The position numbers and the translations under genes were made by a program. Below, one piece after another: positions 16,385 through 61,186 of a stretch of 64,000 nucleotides of DNA. Positions within the stretch are counted from its first letter, which is position 1. Each line of letters starts with the position of its first letter. Under the pieces are notes generated by a model. It was not told the DNA's origin and did not search any database. It saw only the letters and a list, made by a program, of their open reading frames with translations. Origin of the DNA: Pyrinomonadaceae bacterium (GTDB lineage: Bacteria > Acidobacteriota > Blastocatellia > Pyrinomonadales > Pyrinomonadaceae). The stretch is from NCBI GenBank assembly GCA_036560225.1, contig DATBRN010000027.1, forward strand, positions 531 to 64,530, given 5' to 3'.

Positions 16385-17089
16385 ATGACCCTCTACGTCG
16401 GAACCAGCGGCTACAGCTATAAGGAATGGAAGGGAAGCTTTTACCCGGAAAAGATTCCGGCGAAGGAAATGCTCCGGTTCTATTCAGAAAGGCTGAGCAC
16501 GGTTGAAATCAATGCCACGTTCTATCGCATGCCGCAAACCAGCATGCTGGAAAACTGGAAGGAGCAGGTGCCTGCCACTTTTCGCTTCTCGCTCAAGGCT
16601 CCTCAACGAATCACGCACATCAAGCGACTCAAGGAGACAGATGAAGAGACAAAGTACTTCTTTGAAACAGCTTCAGTGCTCGCAGATGAATTGGGCGTAG
16701 TCCTGTTCCAGCTTCCGCCAAACATGAAAAAGGATCTACCGCGCCTCGAAACTTTTCTTGCGCAGCTGCCAGCGGCCACACCCGCGGCGTTCGAGTTTCG
16801 CCACCCCACCTGGTTCGACAATGACGTACTTGATCTCCTGCGAAGCCAAAACCGCGCGCTTTGCATCTCGGATACTGACGACTTACCCGCTACACACATC
16901 GACAAAACTGCCGATTGGGGCTATTTACGGCTGCGTCGTGTAAATTACTCGGAAGAGAATTTGGCGGATTGGCTGGGCCGCATTCGCGATCAGAATTGGA
17001 AAGAGACGTTTCTATTCTTCAAGCATGAAGACGAAGGAACCGGCCCAAAATTAGCAGCCCAGTTTCTTACTCTCGCTAACATCACTTAG
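16385..17089 (+). CDS. DUF72 family protein
   Basis: LYVGTSGYSYKEWKGSFYP..EINATFYRMP..FEFRHPTWF is typical of DUF72. Confidence 0.8.
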   Translation: MTLYVGTSGYSYKEWKGSFYPEKIPAKEMLRFYSERLSTVEINATFYRMPQTSMLENWKEQVPATFRFSLKAPQRITHIKRLKETDEETKYFFETASVLADELGVVLFQLPPNMKKDLPRLETFLAQLPAATPAAFEFRHPTWFDNDVLDLLRSQNRALCISDTDDLPATHIDKTADWGYLRLRRVNYSEENLADWLGRIRDQNWKETFLFFKHEDEGTGPKLAAQFLTLANIT

Positions 17090-36513: not shown

Positions 36514-37224
36514 ATGACACGTCCCTTGATAATCGCTATAGATGGACCATCGGGCGCGGGTAAGTCAACGCTTGGGCGGCTGCTGGCGCGCGCTCTTAAC
36601 CTACTCTACATCGACACCGGATCCATGTATCGTGCCGTCGCCCTGGCGGTAATGGAGTCGAGCATCAGCGCCGATGACGACGTGGCAGTGGGCTCCCTGG
36701 CGGCCAGGATTGACATCGATCTGAAGGGCGATCCAGATTCGTTGCGCGTAACACTTGATGGGCGCGATGTGACCGAGCAGATTCGGAGCGAAGAAGTCAC
36801 CGATTTTTCATCAATCATTTCAACAATTCCAGAAGTGCGTCGGGCGATGGTGGCGCGACAAAGGGAAATGGGTAAACGGGGTGCGGTGCTCAATGGCCGC
36901 GACATCGGCACGGTAGTTTTTCCTGATGCCGATGTGAAGTTTTTCTTGACCGCGTTGCCCCAAACTCGCGCAGAGAGACGCTTCAAGGAAGATCGCGCTC
37001 AGGATCCCGAGGTTAGCTTTGAAGAGACTTTTGCTGACATGGCCGAACGGGACGCCCGAGATTCCACGCGCACCGATTCACCGCTCAAAACTGCTGACGA
37101 TGCGATTATTGTCGATTCGACCGGACTAACTATCGATGAAGTCTTGCAGCGAATGATGGCTGCCATTGAGAAGAAGATAGGAGCGAAATCCGCAATCCGC
37201 AGTCCGCAATCTGAAATTGATTAA
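36514..37224 (+). CDS. cmk: Cytidylate kinase
   Basis: [33 protein letters not shown] is the signature. The C-terminal codons (KSAIRSPQS) are a heptamer array. The stop overlaps the ribE ATG (TAATG). Confidence 0.88.
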
Positions 37225-37832
37225 TGTTTACCGGAATCATTGAGGAGCTTGGAAAAGTCAAAAGCGTTGACCAACGTGGCGACAATGCCCGCGTGGTGAT
37301 CGAAGCGCGTCTTGTCACCGAAGACATTCACGAAGGTGATTCGATCGCTGTCAACGGAGTTTGCCTGACCGCACTCGAGGTAAACGAAGGTTCCTTTGCC
37401 GCAGATGTATCGCGCGAGACATTGGATAGATCCACGCTTGGTGGATTAGCTCCTGGCGCGCCCGTAAATCTCGAGCGGTCTGTCACTCCAGCGACGCGGC
37501 TTGGCGGTCATCTGGTCCAGGGTCACGTTGATGCGCGGGGAAGGTTTCTCAGCGCCACAGATCATGGGGGCTCATGGACTGTTCGAATCGCTTATCCGCC
37601 AGAAATCGCGCGTTATCTTGTTTTCAAAGGCTCAGTGGCCGTAGAAGGAATTAGCCTTACCATCGCCGAGCTTACTGACGATTACTTCGAGATCGCCATC
37701 ATTCCCAAGACCTGGGAAGTTACCAACTTTTCTCACCTCCGACCGGGCGATGATGTAAATCTCGAAGCCGACGTAATCGCCAAATACGTCGAGCGGATCT
37801 TAAGCCTTTCCCGAACTCATACTGCGGATTAG
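37224..37832 (+). CDS. ribE: Riboflavin synthase (alpha chain)
   Basis: [12 protein letters not shown].., [12 protein letters not shown], and [12 protein letters not shown] (two lumazine-binding repeats). Confidence 0.9.
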
Positions 37833-38001
37833 AAGGCCCCCGGTTGGTATGGCTCCTGGAACGGAGCTGAGGGTTGGTCCGTCTGGCGCCACTCAGCCAA
37901 ACGCCCTTTTACGCGCCCCAATGCAAAAAGAAGGGTTTTTGGGTTAACATGATTCCCTGAAATTTCGGATCTCGACTTCCGATCTCAGGTGTCAAAAACT
38001 T

Positions 38002-39201
38002 ATGACTTTTACCCCAATTGAAGATGCTGTCGCCGAAATACGCGATGGGCAAATGATCATTATCGTTGACGACGAGGATCGCGAAAACGAAGGCGACCTG
38101 GTCTGCGCTGCTGAGAAAGCAACTCCCGAGATCATCAACTTCATGGCCCGCTACGCGCGCGGTTTGATATGCCTGCCGCTAACCGAAGAGCGATGCGATG
38201 AGTTGCACCTCACTACGCAGGTAGCGGACAACACGTCTTACTTGGGCACCGCCTTCACCGTTTCCATCGACGCTCGTAAAGGAGTGACAACCGGAATCTC
38301 CGCCTCGGACCGGGCGACCACCATTCAGGTTGCCGTCGATCCACAAACCCGCCCTCAAGACTTAGCGCGACCCGGCCACGTTTTTCCTCTGCGCGCGAAG
38401 AAAGGCGGAGTACTCGTCCGTCCCGGCCAGACTGAAGCGAGCGTTGACATTGCGCGTATTGCCGGTCTCTATCCAGCCGCCGTCATCTGCGAGATCATGA
38501 ATGAAGATGGGACAATGGCGCGGCTGCCGCAACTATTTGAGTTTGCCAACGAACACAAACTAAAGATGATTACTGTCGCTGACCTGGTCAGATACCGGAT
38601 CAACAAAGAGACATTGGTGCGGCGCGCAGTGGAGACAAACCTGCCGACGGTTTACGGGCGTTTTCGCGCTGTCGCCTACGAAAACGTCATTAACGGAGAC
38701 GTGCACCTGGCGATGGTAATGGGCGACGTTCAAACGGAGGACCCCGTCCTGGTGCGCGTGCATACAGAAAATGTTACCTGCGACATGTTTGGCTCTCTGA
38801 TCGACGACACCGGGTTCCAACTTCATACCGCACTGGAAAAAATCTCCGCCGCTGGTCAGGGCGTGGTTCTTTACCTGCGCCAGCGCGAACACAGCCTTGA
38901 TCTCGTGAATCAGTTACGCACTTACGCCCTGATGCAAGAGACGAGCGTCACCAAGCGTGAAGCCAGCCTCGAGACCGGCTACGGCGTGGATCGCGACTAT
39001 GGAGTCGGGGCGCAAATACTTCATGACCTTGGCCTTCGTCGTATACAATTGTTGACGAACCATCCCCCCAAAGTTGCAGCTCTTGAAGGGTTCGCGCTTG
39101 AGGTTGTCGGGAATGTGCCTCTGGGACAGCCCGCAAACCCCAAGGATACGCCGGTTGAAGGAAAACAACCGCTGCCGGAGGATAGAGAGCAACGCGCCTG
39201 A
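38002..39201 (+). CDS. ribBA: 3,4-dihydroxy-2-butanone-4-phosphate synthase fused to a degenerate GTP cyclohydrolase II-like domain (RibBX-type)
   Basis: The N-terminal domain has [12 protein letters not shown] and RPGHVFPL. The C-terminal domain aligns with RibA, but where RibA has HSEC..RCDCG this protein reads HTEN..IDDTG. Confidence 0.85.
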
Positions 39202-55554: not shown

Positions 55555-56211
55555 TCACTCAAACTGTTTCTTGAAACTCTCAAACTGCGTTTTCAGCATT
55601 CCGATGTCGGCTTTCAATGTTTCAACCTCAGCTTCGAGTGCGGCCACTCTGTCGCTGTCCCGGCTGCGGCTTCTGGCTGGGGCAACATCCTGTTGTATGG
55701 CCTCAATTGAAACTTCTCCGGAAAGAAGATGAGCGTAACGAGCCTCTTTCTGACCGGGCTGACGCGGCAAGCGTGTAACCAGCGGGTCTGGCTCCCTGTT
55801 TATCAGTCCATTCAGCGTAGCTTCGACTTCTTCCAGGCCTGAAAACTCATGCAGCCGAAAAGCGCGTGTCGCAAGTTCACCAGTAGTTTGCGGCCCACGG
55901 AGTAGGAGCACACAGATCAGCGCCATCTCCGGGTGGCTCAGATGCATTACCTCAGGCAGGACGTGTTTGTATTTGGGTACCCGGCTTGTGCTGCCATAAA
56001 ACACGTAAGCAAGGTTCTTCTCGCGCAGAGTTTCAATCGCGTGTGCGACTGTTGTCTCGTCGTAAGAAGTGACCGGGGTCCGGTTGTTCTTCTGATTGCA
56101 AGCGAGCGTTAGCGCGTTTAGGGTGAGGGGATAGTATTCCGGTGTCGTCACCTGCTTTTCAACAAGCGATCCCAGTACTCTAGCTTCAACATCAGTTAAT
56201 ATGGTGGTCAA
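55555..56211 (-). CDS. DUF480 (YceH/UPF0502) family protein
   Basis: LTDVEARVLGSLVEKQVTTPEYYPLTLNALTLACNQKNNR.. plus a C-terminal coiled coil. Confidence 0.8.
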   Translation of the reverse strand: MTTILTDVEARVLGSLVEKQVTTPEYYPLTLNALTLACNQKNNRTPVTSYDETTVAHAIETLREKNLAYVFYGSTSRVPKYKHVLPEVMHLSHPEMALICVLLLRGPQTTGELATRAFRLHEFSGLEEVEATLNGLINREPDPLVTRLPRQPGQKEARYAHLLSGEVSIEAIQQDVAPARSRSRDSDRVAALEAEVETLKADIGMLKTQFESFKKQFE

Positions 56212-56228
56212 TTGATCTTGTTCCTGAA

Positions 56229-56642
56229 TCAGTTATCTTGAAAGAATTCCTCGAGTATGCCTGTAAGCTCCGCCGGACTTTGATAGGTGCGGACGGTGGC
56301 AGCTTTGCAGCCTGAAATCATTGCCGAAAGTGAGCGGCCATTTTCCTGGCGATAAAGGCAAAGCACTGGCTTGCCCCATTCCGTGGCTTTACCGATTTCA
56401 TACCCCACTCCAAGGCTGGGAGTTGTAACTTCGGCAACAAGATAGTCGGATTTTTTTAACCAATCCAGATCGCGGTCGTGGATCTTACAATCGCCGATGT
56501 CCTGGCCAAGCACCCTCAATTCAGCGTCTGCCACATGTTCAGTCAAGACTTCGCCGTGTTTTTGCAACAGCCGAACGATGTCGTGGTACAGCGCGGCATC
56601 CTGGCACCCACCCCGGATTGATCCTGCGAAGTAGATTCTCAT
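56229..56642 (-). CDS. DNPH1/Rcl-like 2-deoxynucleoside 5-phosphate N-hydrolase (nucleoside 2-deoxyribosyltransferase fold)
   Basis: MRIYFAGSIRGG..LYHDIV..GEVLTEHVADAEL..DLDWLKKSDYLVAEVTTPSLGVGYEIGKA..LCLYR..SLSAMI is collinear with animal DNPH1 as I remember it. Confidence 0.8.
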   Translation of the reverse strand: MRIYFAGSIRGGCQDAALYHDIVRLLQKHGEVLTEHVADAELRVLGQDIGDCKIHDRDLDWLKKSDYLVAEVTTPSLGVGYEIGKATEWGKPVLCLYRQENGRSLSAMISGCKAATVRTYQSPAELTGILEEFFQDN

Positions 56643-56738
56643 TATCGGGGATCACTTGTAACGCAAAACTGTTACTTTGCGGACGGTTCGTTGCCACTCA
56701 CTTGTGTGTAACCTACCGACGCAAACTAACAGTTTGCT

Positions 56739-58112
56739 TTACACATTCTTCGCGCAGCGGAAGCCCGAAACCATCCAGCGTTCGTGCGCGTGAAAGAAGT
56801 TGCGGTAGGTCGAGCGAATATGGACCCCCGGTGTCGCGTATGAGCCGCCACGCAGGACTTTTTGGTTGACGAACCACTTATCGTTGTACTCTTCAAACTC
56901 CGATTTGAATCCGGGATAGGGCACGTAGTCTGAAGTCGTCCATTCCCACACGTCGCCGATCATCTGTTGACAGCCATACCTGTTTTGTCCTGCCGGAAAG
57001 GCGCCGATTGGCGCGGGTGCCCAGAGGCCGGTCTCAAACAGGTTTGCTTTAGTCTCGTCGATTCCCTCATTGCCCCAGGGAAAAGCGTTCCTCTCATTAG
57101 TGGTTGGGTCGAAGGTGGCGGCTTTTTCCCATTCAGCCTCGGTCGGCAAACGTTTGCCGGCCCATTTTGCGAACGCGGAAGCCTCAAAAAAACTTACGTG
57201 TGAAACGGGTTCGTTCGCCTTGCTTTCAACCGGATGCAGACCAGAAAAGTCGCGAATCATCCAACTTCCGTCGTAGGGTTCCCAGTAGAGTGGCGCCCGC
57301 CACTGTTCACGATTAACAGTCTCCCAGCCTTCGGAGAACCACCAGCGAAAGTTCTGGTAGCCGCTATCCTGGATAAACGCGAGAAAGTCGCCATTGCTGA
57401 CCAATCTTCGATCAAGAGCGTAATCCTGTAAAAAAACCTGGTGGGCTGGCTTTTCGTTGTCAAAGGCGAAGTCGTAGCTAGAAGGACTGTGCACTGTGGA
57501 CTGTCGACTGTGGACTTGTCTGTCGTAACCAAGCCAATAAAGTCCCCCCTCGATCTCAGCCATGCCTTCGACTTTGACAGCAGACACCGGCGCAGGTTTT
57601 ATCGGCGCTTCATATTGGTCGCACAGCAGGTGCTTGATGTCATAGACCAGCAATTCCTGGTGCTGCATTTCGTGCTCGAGGCCAAGCCGCGCGAGTGATA
57701 AGACTTCATCCGCGTTGGCCGTTTCTTCAATTGAATTCAAAAACGCAAGCATTTGCTCATCAACGTGTTTCCGATACGCAACGGTGTCTTTAACCGTCGG
57801 CCGCGATCGGGTCCCGCGCTTCGGTCGCTCTATTCGTTCGCCGAACCCTTCATAATAGGAATTGAAGTAGAAGAGGTACTCCTCAGAGTAAACCCCGTAG
57901 CCGGGCTGGTAAGTTTGCAGTAGAGTCTCGAAAAACCAGGACGTATGGCCGATATGCCAGCGCGGAGGGCTCATAAACTCCGCCGTCTGTATCACGTAGT
58001 CCTCAATCTCCAGAGGCGCAACGATCTGCATTGTCCGCGCACGCACATCCTTGTAGAGTTCGATAATTGAGCGCGTCTTTGGAACAACGATTTCCCCGAT
58101 TGTAGAAGCCAT
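56739..58112 (-). CDS. egtB: EgtB/OvoA-family sulfoxide synthase (DinB-like N-terminal domain plus FGE-sulfatase-type C-terminal domain)
   Basis: [61 protein letters not shown], and GDVWEWT..RGGSY. It contains an in-frame heptamer array at 57484-57525. Whether the substrate is sulfur or selenium is unknown. Confidence 0.8.
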
Positions 58113-58121
58113 TACTCTTTC

Positions 58122-59156
58122 CTATGAATTTACTACGATTGAATGTTCACCACGTTCAATAACACGGCCTATTGTCGCGGCTTGAGGATAATTTTCACGC
58201 AGGCGATCAAGCAAGTCATTCGCACGCTCGGGCGAAACGGAGATCAACATACCTCCAGCTGTCTGTGGATCAAAGAATAGCTTAACCAGGTTCTCGTCCA
58301 CTAACCCGTCGACTGCGATGTCTGCACCAATGTATTCACGATTTGTCTTGTCGCCACTTGTTAACATCCCTGCCGCTGCCAGTTCCGACGCGCCATCGAG
58401 TACCGGTACCTTGTCGGGCTCGATTACTATCGTCACCTTGCTGGCGCAGGCCATCTCCCAGGCATGACCGAGGAGGGCGAAACCAGTTACATCAGTAGCG
58501 CCCTTTACGCCAAACTCGCGCATCGCCTCGGCAGCGTATCTGCCGGGCAGCATCATGGTCGCGACAGAAGAGGCAGCAATTGCAGGTGACGTTTTTTCAA
58601 ACTTGATACCTGTTGAGATAACGCCGGTGCCGATGGGTTTCGTCAAGATAATCACGTCCCCGCGTTGTGCACCGGCGTTAGTGGCAATCTTGCGTGGATC
58701 AATTGTGCCGGTTACCGAGTATCCAAACATGATTTGCTGGTTGTCGACGCTGTGTCCGCCAATCAGCGTGACGCCATACTTATTTAAAGTTTCCAATCCA
58801 CCACGCATGATCTCGCCGAGGATCGCCGGATCGACGCCCTTCTTGGGGAAACACGTGATCGCCAGCGCAGTCAGTGGGGTGCCGGCCATCGCCCAGACAT
58901 CGTTAATTGAATTGAGCGCAGCAATCTGACCATACACGAAAGGATCGTCTACGATGGGCGTGAAAAAATCGAGGGTTTGCACGATCGCGAGGTCGTCGCG
59001 CAATCGATACACTCCGGCGTCGTCGGCAGTGTCGAAGCCGACTAAGACATTCTCGTCCTTGGGCTGTGTTGGTAGCCCGCTCAACACCTGAGCGAGTAAG
59101 CTCGGTGACAGCTTAGCCGCTCAACCAGAGCACGAAACCATTTCCGTCAGTCGCAC
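58122..59156 (-). CDS. selD: Selenophosphate synthetase containing selenocysteine (in-frame UGA at 59123-59121)
   Basis: The track ORF (58122-59087) lacks the catalytic N-terminus. Extending upstream through the TGA gives AAGGAG-N8-GTG: [29 protein letters not shown]... This aligns with E. coli [21 protein letters not shown], placing Sec at the Cys17 position and Lys three residues later. Confidence 0.88.
59092..59123 (-). promoter_or_regulatory. UGA Sec codon plus candidate SECIS hairpin immediately downstream
   Basis: The RNA reads UGA GCGGCUAAGCU-GUCACCG-AGCUUACUCGC. That is an 11-position stem with 9 Watson-Crick pairs, 1 G-U pair and 1 C-C mismatch, and a 7-nt loop. Confidence 0.65.
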
Positions 59157-60277: not shown

Positions 60278-61186
60278 TTGATGACTGACAAAACACGGAT
60301 ACGCATTGGTCCCGCCGGCTGGTCCTACAAGGACTGGGAAGGAATCGTTTATCCCAGGAAGCCGGGTGCGAAGTTTGACCCGCTCGAATATCTCGCCCGC
60401 TTTTTCAATACTATTGAGATTAATAGCAGTTTCTACCGGCCATTCACAGCTTCCACAGCGAATTCCTGGGCCAGTCGCGTCGCTGCCGCCGCCGATTTCT
60501 TGTTTACCGCAAAACTTCACCGTGTTTTTACACATGAACGCGGCAAGGCGACTGCGGAAGATGAGAAGATGGTACGCGAAGGCATGGATGCGCTCAGGAG
60601 TCAGGAGAGGTTGGGAGCAGTATTAATTCAGTTTCCATGGTCGTTCAAGAATACTGACGAGGACCGCCTCTATTTAGCGAAACTGCTCGACCAGTTCAAG
60701 GACTACCCACTGGTGCTAGAGATCAGGCACTCATCGTGGAACAATCCGCAGATCTATGAATGGCTGGAAGAAGTGGGAGTCGGGATCTGCAATGTGGACC
60801 AACCGCTTTTTTCGAGATCTATTAAACCTGCTGCCATCACGACGGCACAAATAGGCTACGTGCGGCTTCACGGTAGAAACTATCAGGACTGGTTCAGGGA
60901 AAAAGCGCCGCGAGATGACCGTTACAATTATCTATATTCACTCGAGGAGTTGGAGCCGTGGATTACAAGGATCAAGGAGATTGCGGCCAGGACGAAGGAG
61001 GCCTATGTGATCACAAACAACCATTTTCGCGGCCAGGCAGTGGTTAACGCGCTTGAGATAAAGTCTACGTTGACGGAAGAACGGGTTCCAGGTCCTGCCC
61101 CGCTGTTTGAGAAGTATCCGGAACTGATTGAATCGGCCACTCCGGAAAGTGAAGTGTCTGAGTCTGAGCCGACTCTTTTCAGCTGA
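60278..61186 (+). CDS. DUF72 family protein (second paralogue)
   Basis: IRIGPAGWSYKDWEGIVYP..EINSSFYRPF..LEIRHSSW. Confidence 0.8.
   Translation: MMTDKTRIRIGPAGWSYKDWEGIVYPRKPGAKFDPLEYLARFFNTIEINSSFYRPFTASTANSWASRVAAAADFLFTAKLHRVFTHERGKATAEDEKMVREGMDALRSQERLGAVLIQFPWSFKNTDEDRLYLAKLLDQFKDYPLVLEIRHSSWNNPQIYEWLEEVGVGICNVDQPLFSRSIKPAAITTAQIGYVRLHGRNYQDWFREKAPRDDRYNYLYSLEELEPWITRIKEIAARTKEAYVITNNHFRGQAVVNALEIKSTLTEERVPGPAPLFEKYPELIESATPESEVSESEPTLFS

Follow-up and report, generated by a model that had tools for sequence, protein, structure and literature searches.

Genes at the selD-egtB locus

The DNA analysed here is a window of 64,000 nt from a metagenome-assembled genome (MAG) of a Pyrinomonadaceae bacterium (Acidobacteriota, Blastocatellia; GCA_036560225.1, contig DATBRN010000027.1, positions 531-64,530), in which four consecutive minus-strand genes encode the selenophosphate synthetase SelD, an enzyme of the EgtB family, a DNPH1-like protein, and a DUF480 protein. 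A preliminary description of the window had read this run as a candidate organoselenium pathway that dispenses with SenB of the selenoneine (sen) cluster. The coordinates and gene identities given there all hold upon translation and comparison with Pfam and NCBIfam models; the proposed pathway is weighed below against the genomic context of the family.

The selD gene (58122..59156) starts with GTG at 59156 and ends with TAG at 58124-58122, and its translation meets a single in-frame stop, the TGA at 59121..59123, which is codon 12 and lies in the motif SCSG-U-AAK (U, selenocysteine, Sec). With the Sec position entered as Cys, the encoded selenide, water dikinase scored 356.5 bits on TIGR00476 (cutoff 125) and matched the Pfam domains AIRS and AIRS_C; the same score identifies it as a SelD homologue of the kind that serves as SenC in the sen cluster. 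A hairpin resembling a selenocysteine insertion sequence (SECIS) starts at the UGA (59088..59124; minimum free energy -26.6 kcal/mol, z = -2.53 against shuffles), and the consensus structure predicted from 44 unique orthologues kept paired helices near this codon, but with little covariation and an alternative register. Comparison of orthologues from 70 related Pyrinomonadaceae species showed TGA at the catalytic Cys/Sec codon in 69 and TGT (Cys) in a single species, L025. Judged by this codon pattern, which is the classical Sec/Cys alternation, selD encodes a genuine selenoprotein. A Sec-containing SelD requires selA, selB, and selC, and the gene therefore has a conventional role in the host organism, as the preliminary description had itself cautioned.

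The egtB gene (56739..58112) begins with an ATG at 58112, 9 nt past selD, and encodes a protein of 457 aa with DinB_2 and FGE-sulfatase domains (Pfam), a predicted non-heme-iron hercynine sulfoxide synthase with a type II active-site architecture and ancestral FGE-type loops. It is followed after 96 nt by a gene for a DNPH1/Rcl orthologue of 137 aa (56229..56642; PF05014, Nuc_deoxyrib_tr, 52.9 bits), a predicted 2'-deoxynucleoside 5'-phosphate N-hydrolase that is accessory here, and after a further 17 nt by a gene for a DUF480/YceH (UPF0502) protein of 218 aa, which runs from a TTG start at 56211 to 55555 (PF04337, 200 bits). The latter protein matched the E. coli YceH structure 5vyv with 163 bits, and a literature search on DUF480/YceH function gave unrelated matches only.

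The minus strand shows no predicted intrinsic terminator anywhere in the four genes, and because only 9 nt separate selD from egtB, the two are likely to be co-transcribed in the window genome. For the minus-strand genes as a group, co-transcription is plausible. The promoter/terminator scan of the window performed no better than shuffles. Pfam scans of the non-overlapped open reading frames (ORFs) with 150 aa or more detected neither EgtD (Methyltransf_33) nor an EgtC/EgtE-type gene nor a glycosyltransferase in the window. In addition, tblastn of the window with a genuine EgtD (a query validated by 416 bits on TIGR03438), two SenB sequences, and SenA gave no match beyond egtB itself, which agrees with the earlier statement that an EgtD and a glycosyltransferase are missing from the 64 kb.

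The type of EgtB

The central question is which sulfur or selenium chemistry the EgtB-family enzyme would perform. On the NCBIfam models, the window EgtB passed TIGR03440 (EgtB; 471.8 bits, cutoff 360) and failed both NF041186 (SenA; 342 bits, cutoff 420) and TIGR04373 (SenA-type signature; 46.3 bits, cutoff 71). Genuine SenA proteins of relatives reached 487-508 bits on NF041186 and, for L046, L173, and L174, 95-100 bits on TIGR04373. The EgtB and SenA models separate paralogues cleanly, since the two adjacent paralogues of locus L173 scored 462/344 (EgtB) and 336/502 (SenA) on them, respectively. A protein identical to the window EgtB has already been named EgtB by NCBI.

Among solved structures, the best match to the window EgtB was the cysteine-dependent type II EgtB of Chloracidobacterium thermophilum (CthEgtB; PDB 6QKI, 6O6L, 8QF6), which typifies the two-gene egtB-egtD ergothioneine system, with 326 bits, followed by OvsA (209 bits), the type I MthEgtB (188 bits), and SenA (133 bits). 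The window protein is 48% identical to CthEgtB, and in the alignment of the two the iron triad His62/His153/His157 and the pair Tyr93/Tyr94 are invariant. Both also belong to TIGR03440, combine the DinB and FGE folds, and have in common the type II motifs WHxGH, FNSYY, RPxRGxxxRPT, HExQHQE, EYNxK, and YRNFF..RW. The thiol-donor motif RPxRG...RPT is kept with Arg100, Arg103, Arg106, and Arg111, which we take to be the cysteine binders of the CthEgtB structures. The hercynine motif of the window enzyme reads EYNDKW...YRNFF, where wild-type OvsA, which binds histidine, has M...QA. In CthEgtB, Tyr93 and Tyr94 act as the catalytic pair by which the type II active site is defined (PMC10903977).

The features that distinguish the selenium enzymes point in the same direction. 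SenA and OvsA possess no Tyr-Tyr pair and show His-containing segments where EgtB has its Arg motif. SenA has His in place of the thiol-binding Arg, and its catalytic Tyr sits in a YxxY motif of the C-terminal domain (10.1101/2022.04.13.486033; PMC11237966). At the corresponding positions, the SenA of locus L105 reads VPHDTRW and PYREY, and the window EgtB keeps a 14-residue segment there and has FEEY, with Phe at the position of the SenA catalytic Tyr. We infer from these motifs that the window EgtB is a sulfur-type, type II, cysteine-dependent hercynine sulfoxide synthase, with both substrates predicted.

A single-protein neighbour-joining tree placed the Pyrinomonadaceae EgtB clade as sister to the Cth-like type II enzymes and left SenA and OvsA outside this group. 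The sole structural feature that sets the clade apart is a pair of FGE-type loops of 17 and 9 aa, FPWG[ND]E... and FPAGQN..., which it has kept and the Cth-like enzymes have lost. Because SenA, OvsA, and type I EgtB all carry the same two loops, they are considered ancestral rather than selenium-specific. The idea that they are a selenium-sugar feature was rejected, as type I MthEgtB aligns across the region with no length difference.

The EgtB proteins of this group also vary in length. A linker, 11 residues of which are encoded at 57480-57520, joins the DinB and FGE domains, and its coding sequence is built from an imperfect 7-nt periodic repeat (AGTCCAC/AGTCGAC/AGTCCAC/AGTGCAC). This linker is highly variable in length among orthologues, with a low-complexity insertion of ~44 aa in P0068. 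The EgtB proteins of L046 and L175 are longer than that of the window (480 and 573 aa, respectively). Many EgtB representatives of 735-784 aa, among them P0128, P0137, P0138, P0151, P0154, and P0156, align with the window EgtB in a terminal stretch of only ~420 residues and are possibly fusions with a second domain, candidate EgtD, in either order.

Gene order within Pyrinomonadaceae

To place the four genes in context, 80 Pyrinomonadaceae species representatives from a genome scan, whose EgtB proteins are 69-83% identical to that of the window, were compared. They possess a conserved block with the order unk203-AhpC-EVE-glyoxalase-DUF72-(hydrolase)-selD-egtB-(DNPH1)-DUF480-(AraC-DUF1761)-Lhr. 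In all 74 informative species, those whose loci carry enough flank, selD lies upstream of egtB within a ~15-kb block of unrelated genes. The spacing of the two genes is far from uniform: of the 74 species, 21 have a gap of no more than 60 nt, 19 one of 61-300 nt, and 34 one of more than 300 nt, and in 21 species it exceeds 1 kb. The AhpC/EVE/glyoxalase junctions measure at most 300 nt in 98-100% of cases, and the selD-egtB junction is among the more interrupted ones of the block. The preliminary description proposed to check whether the gene order is conserved in relatives; the selD-egtB order is, and the tight spacing is not.

DUF480 follows egtB in most family members, with inserted genes occupying up to 3.5 kb between them. 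The genes inserted around selD, egtB, and DUF480 encode a photolyase-like protein (below the Pfam cutoff), a Uma2 endonuclease, a lysyl-oxidase-like protein, a NUDIX protein, a 1029-aa Peptidase_M14-like protein, and unknowns including one of 253 aa. The first three are among those that separate selD from egtB. Neither EgtD nor SenB occurs among the inserts, and both were rejected as candidates for them. The 253-aa ORF, which has no Pfam match, lies on the opposite strand between egtB and DUF480 in 12 species (L011, L016, L027, L029, L031, L032, L033, L037, L039, L050, L053, and L055); its HVHAVV-type motif recalls Y1 (IS200/RAYT-like) transposases and suggests a mobile or repeat-associated gene. 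One of the two DUF72 paralogues of the window (16385-17089 and 60278-61186) belongs to the conserved block adjoining selD.

Considering that it is conserved across the family, the selD-egtB adjacency is not a random coincidence, and its conservation is common to the whole surrounding block. What is conserved is thus family-level synteny, and this conservation does not speak for a functional unit of four genes. Searches by tblastn detected EgtD neither in the window nor in any of 85 related loci, and a literature search for ergothioneine in Acidobacteria or Pyrinomonadaceae found nothing.

The DNPH1-like gene is a sporadic member of the locus. Among the 68 species loci with both egtB and DUF480, it is present in 14, which are scattered over the EgtB tree. 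The window protein matched rat Rcl with 140 bits and human DNPH1 with 128 bits; the motifs IYFxGSIRGG, DRDL, GVGYE, and LSAMI are conserved with rat Rcl, so that the catalytic Tyr, Asp, and Glu as well as the phosphate-binding Ser motifs are kept. It resembles in these respects the mammalian enzyme, a 5-hydroxymethyl-2'-deoxyuridine 5'-monophosphate (hmdUMP) N-hydrolase, and differs from it in being bacterial and sporadic at its locus. It is best read as a 2'-deoxynucleoside 5'-monophosphate (dNMP) N-hydrolase.

Relatives with sen genes

A tblastn search with SenB over the 80 species loci gave a match in one, L046. This locus carries on one strand selD(Sec), a gene for an FAD-dependent (flavin adenine dinucleotide) pyridine-nucleotide-disulfide oxidoreductase, egtB, senA (508 bits), and senB (390 bits). 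A SenB search combined with inspection of context revealed the same insertion in three further loci, L171/L172, L173, and L175, which possess the same block of EVE-glyoxalase-DUF72-hydrolase-selD...Lhr. L171 and L175 also encode an ABC (ATP-binding cassette) transporter, the binding protein of which, as scored in L171, passes TIGR04553, a model for putative selenate transporters. The composite order is selD-(selenate ABC transporter)-FAD oxidoreductase-egtB-senA-senB. In L171 (8108-8584), all that is left of egtB is a C-terminal remnant of 103 aa, which is 82% identical to the window protein and lies directly upstream of intact senA-senB, which looks like a recent loss of the sulfur enzyme with the selenium enzyme retained.

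A different arrangement was found in L174 (DASXRU010000105), where senA (487 bits) and senB (372 bits) lie away from selD, and the same MAG holds a window-like egtB-DUF480 locus, L028 (DASXRU010000090). Since senA-senB can thus occur on another contig than the window-like locus, the lack of SenB in the 64 kb is uninformative about what the genome carries elsewhere.

With the EgtB tree rooted on Kapabacteria, L046 groups with L047 and L048 and occupies a derived position, and the basal lineages (L081, L083, L084, and L066) have selD-egtB-DUF480. Because the sen-bearing lineage is derived and the basal ones are without sen genes, it is more parsimonious that sen genes entered a selD-egtB locus which already existed than that they were lost across the family, on the evidence of this one single-protein neighbour-joining tree. 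As far as gene content indicates, those Pyrinomonadaceae that encode selenoneine synthesis rely on canonical SenA and SenB, with EgtB as a distinct enzyme alongside. The connection that the preliminary description drew between a selD/egtB pair and selenoneine biology is partly right at the level of the locus: a subclade has senA-senB at the orthologous position.

The FAD oxidoreductase is RclA/MerA/lipoamide-dehydrogenase-like, scores below all equivalog cutoffs, and recurs beside egtB/senA-senB in Pyrinomonadaceae (L046:8321-9709; L171:6596-7987; L173:4274-5665; L175:5392-6780; L174:10482-11864; also in L096, L116, L163, and L094). Unrelated metagenome loci carry homologues with 30-42% identity close to egtB-egtD. 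The enzyme is a candidate for the reduction of ergothioneine or selenoneine in their oxidised forms. A lone SenB homologue was encountered in a Blastocatellia MAG (L176/L177:10001-11047) among RND (resistance-nodulation-division) efflux, DsbB/DsbA, and phosphodiesterase genes, with neither senA nor selD within 10 kb.

EgtB loci outside the family

The comparison was extended to 80 Cth-like type II EgtB loci from a metagenome scan. EgtD is encoded in 64 of them, typically a few nt downstream on the same strand, whereas egtD is never adjacent in the 80 Pyrinomonadaceae species. DUF480 and DNPH1 occur in none of the Cth-like loci and selD in only one, L105, which is a full senA-senB-senC cluster abutting egtB-egtD. 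On this GC-rich metagenome contig (L105:89-5727), senA(-), senB, senC/selD of the Cys type, egtB, and egtD(-) stand back to back as a compact supercluster of sen and egt genes.

Outside the family, an exhaustive search of cluster representatives placed Kapabacteria/Ignavibacteria proteins closest to the window EgtB, with 55% identity. Their egtB genes were inspected in three genomic contexts, which differ from one another, and none of selD, egtD, DUF480, and DNPH1 lies within 10 kb. These EgtB proteins (L166-L170) are encoded by orphan genes and have the same retained loops as the window EgtB. In L168/L169, an Aminotran_5 gene stands two genes upstream of egtB on the opposite strand. A hydrolase partner common to the Kapabacteria egtB and the window was considered and rejected, as the two hydrolases do not match. 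The pairing of selD with egtB is confined to Pyrinomonadaceae, and separation from egtD characterises the 'long-loop' EgtB clade as a whole.

Two characterised selenium clusters help to delimit the window locus. In the senA-senB-senC cluster of Variovorax paradoxus (Kayrouz et al. 2022), selD likewise adjoins a gene for an EgtB-family non-heme-iron enzyme, and the subclade related to the window has genuine senA and senB. The window itself, unlike that cluster, has no SenB (TIGR04348), its EgtB shows neither the Arg-to-His change nor the C-terminal catalytic Tyr, and its selD is a Sec-containing, housekeeping-type enzyme. The ovoselenol cluster ovsA-ovsM-senB-senC (Kayrouz et al. 2024) also places an EgtB-superfamily enzyme near selD, and OvsA has the FPWG[ND]E loop in common with the window EgtB. 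OvsA, however, binds histidine with M/Q/A in place of Y/N/F, whereas the window EgtB has the hercynine motif, and neither OvsM nor SenB is encoded in the window.

Biosynthetic interpretation

The four genes are probably a lineage-specific run of neighbours, in which a general selD stands next to a sulfur-type egtB, with no dedicated new selenium pathway. SelD would act as the general selenophosphate synthetase of the cell, serving Sec decoding and, in sen-bearing genomes, also supplying SenB. EgtB is predicted to join cysteine to hercynine by means of Fe(II) bound to the His triad and of the Tyr-Tyr pair, yielding ergothioneine, and hercynine would be supplied by an unlinked egtD. The DNPH1 orthologue would be a sporadic dNMP N-hydrolase, probably engaged in nucleotide-pool sanitation. 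The selD-egtB adjacency appears to be old in the family and to have been inherited along with the ~15 kb of unrelated flanking genes, the tight coupling not being conserved. In a derived subclade, canonical senA-senB, the FAD disulfide oxidoreductase, and sometimes a selenate transporter would have been added at the locus, giving rise to a composite egt/sen cluster in which selD serves as SenC.

Several points weigh against this interpretation. The unbroken order of selD before egtB in the 74 informative species, with a gap of at most 60 nt in 21 of them, leaves room for a selective reason for co-expression. The assignment of cysteine and hercynine as substrates derives from motif conservation, in a clade that shares no more than 48% identity with the characterised CthEgtB and carries two loops absent from the Cth-like enzymes. 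The genes of the clade never adjoin egtD, which most type II egtB genes do. Furthermore, the supporting trees are single-protein neighbour-joining trees, and the link between L174 and L028 depends on correct binning of the MAG.

An alternative, which we regard as unlikely, is that selD and egtB form a functional operon of a split thio/selenoimidazole system, with senA-senB and egtD elsewhere in the genome. SelD would double as SenC, and the linkage would co-regulate ergothioneine and selenoneine with no new chemistry involved. The MAG in which a window-like egtB-DUF480 locus coexists with a senA-senB pair that lies on a different contig and has no adjacent selD fits such a system, as do the recruitment of sen genes to exactly this locus in the subclade and the 9-nt gap with no terminator in the window. 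In addition, egt and sen clusters reportedly co-occur beyond expectation (PMC11030361). Contrarily, close SenB homologues form only ~13 clusters (at least 71% identity) versus more than 120 EgtB clusters (at least 75% identity), unrelated genes often interrupt the selD-egtB junction, and a Sec-containing selD needs no further reason to exist.

A relic origin, in which the family ancestor possessed selD-egtB-senA-senB and most lineages including that of the window lost senAB, seems improbable. The four composite loci do share one syntenic block, and the egtB remnant of L171 demonstrates that gene decay occurs there. The derived position of the sen-bearing lineage next to L047 and L048, set against basal lineages free of sen genes, argues for gain instead; senAB stands at the locus in just one of the 80 species representatives, and no remnants of senA or senB were detected in the remaining loci.

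It is still harder to defend a synthesis of selenoneine that bypasses SenB, whereby the Pyrinomonadaceae EgtB would take its selenium donor directly, either as free selenocysteine or as a selenophosphate-derived species provided by the co-transcribed SelD. The family-wide selD linkage, the divergence of the EgtB clade, and its separation from egtD could be cited in its favour, and fungal Egt1 can form selenoneine through hercynylselenocysteine (PMC10903977). Bacterial ergothioneine enzymes, on the other hand, were reportedly unable to make selenoneine in vitro (10.1101/2022.04.13.486033). The active-site motifs of the window EgtB are identical to those of cysteine-type EgtB-II, the nearest out-of-family relatives have no adjacent selD, and in three of the four composite loci an intact EgtB stands beside separate SenA and SenB, which implies that EgtB is not the selenium enzyme of the family. 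The SenB-independent pathway of the preliminary description is likewise not supported, as the window EgtB fails the SenA models and the sen-bearing relatives rely on the canonical pair. There is a very slight chance that the 'long-loop' EgtB of Pyrinomonadaceae and Kapabacteria is a sulfoxide/selenoxide synthase using a selenium donor in the absence of SenB; if true, it would represent a second bacterial route to selenoneine.

The specific proposal that the DNPH1-like N-glycosidase makes a seleno-(deoxy)ribose phosphate from dNMP and selenophosphate as a new carrier feeding the EgtB-like enzyme has in its favour only the gene order of the window and of the 14 related loci with DNPH1, and it is scarcely credible given the absence of DNPH1 from 54 of 68 loci that keep selD-egtB-DUF480 and from all other EgtB contexts examined, the 140-bit match to mammalian DNPH1 with all hydrolase catalytic motifs intact, and the Arg motif of EgtB, which is of the amino-acid type and not of the SenA/OvsA sugar type.

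Other features of the window

Riboflavin genes (lumazine-binding RibE-like and RibBA) occupy 37224-39201 and are not accompanied by a flavin mononucleotide (FMN) riboswitch. Across the 64-kb window, no Rfam family at gathering score and no tRNA gene was found.

Implications for the family

As originally worded, the proposal of a new organoselenium pathway matters little, since there is no evidence for new selenium chemistry and NCBI models already name the gene EgtB. The comparison instead defines a family-wide linkage of selD(Sec) with egtB and an EgtB-II sister clade whose genes stand apart from egtD in two phyla. In a soil acidobacterial subclade, exactly this locus is seen to have recruited canonical sen genes along with an FAD disulfide oxidoreductase and a selenate transporter, and SenC there is itself a selenoprotein. 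These loci could guide the search for an ergothioneine or selenoneine reductase, and they could likewise guide work on the joint organisation of sulfur- and selenium-imidazole antioxidants in abundant soil bacteria.

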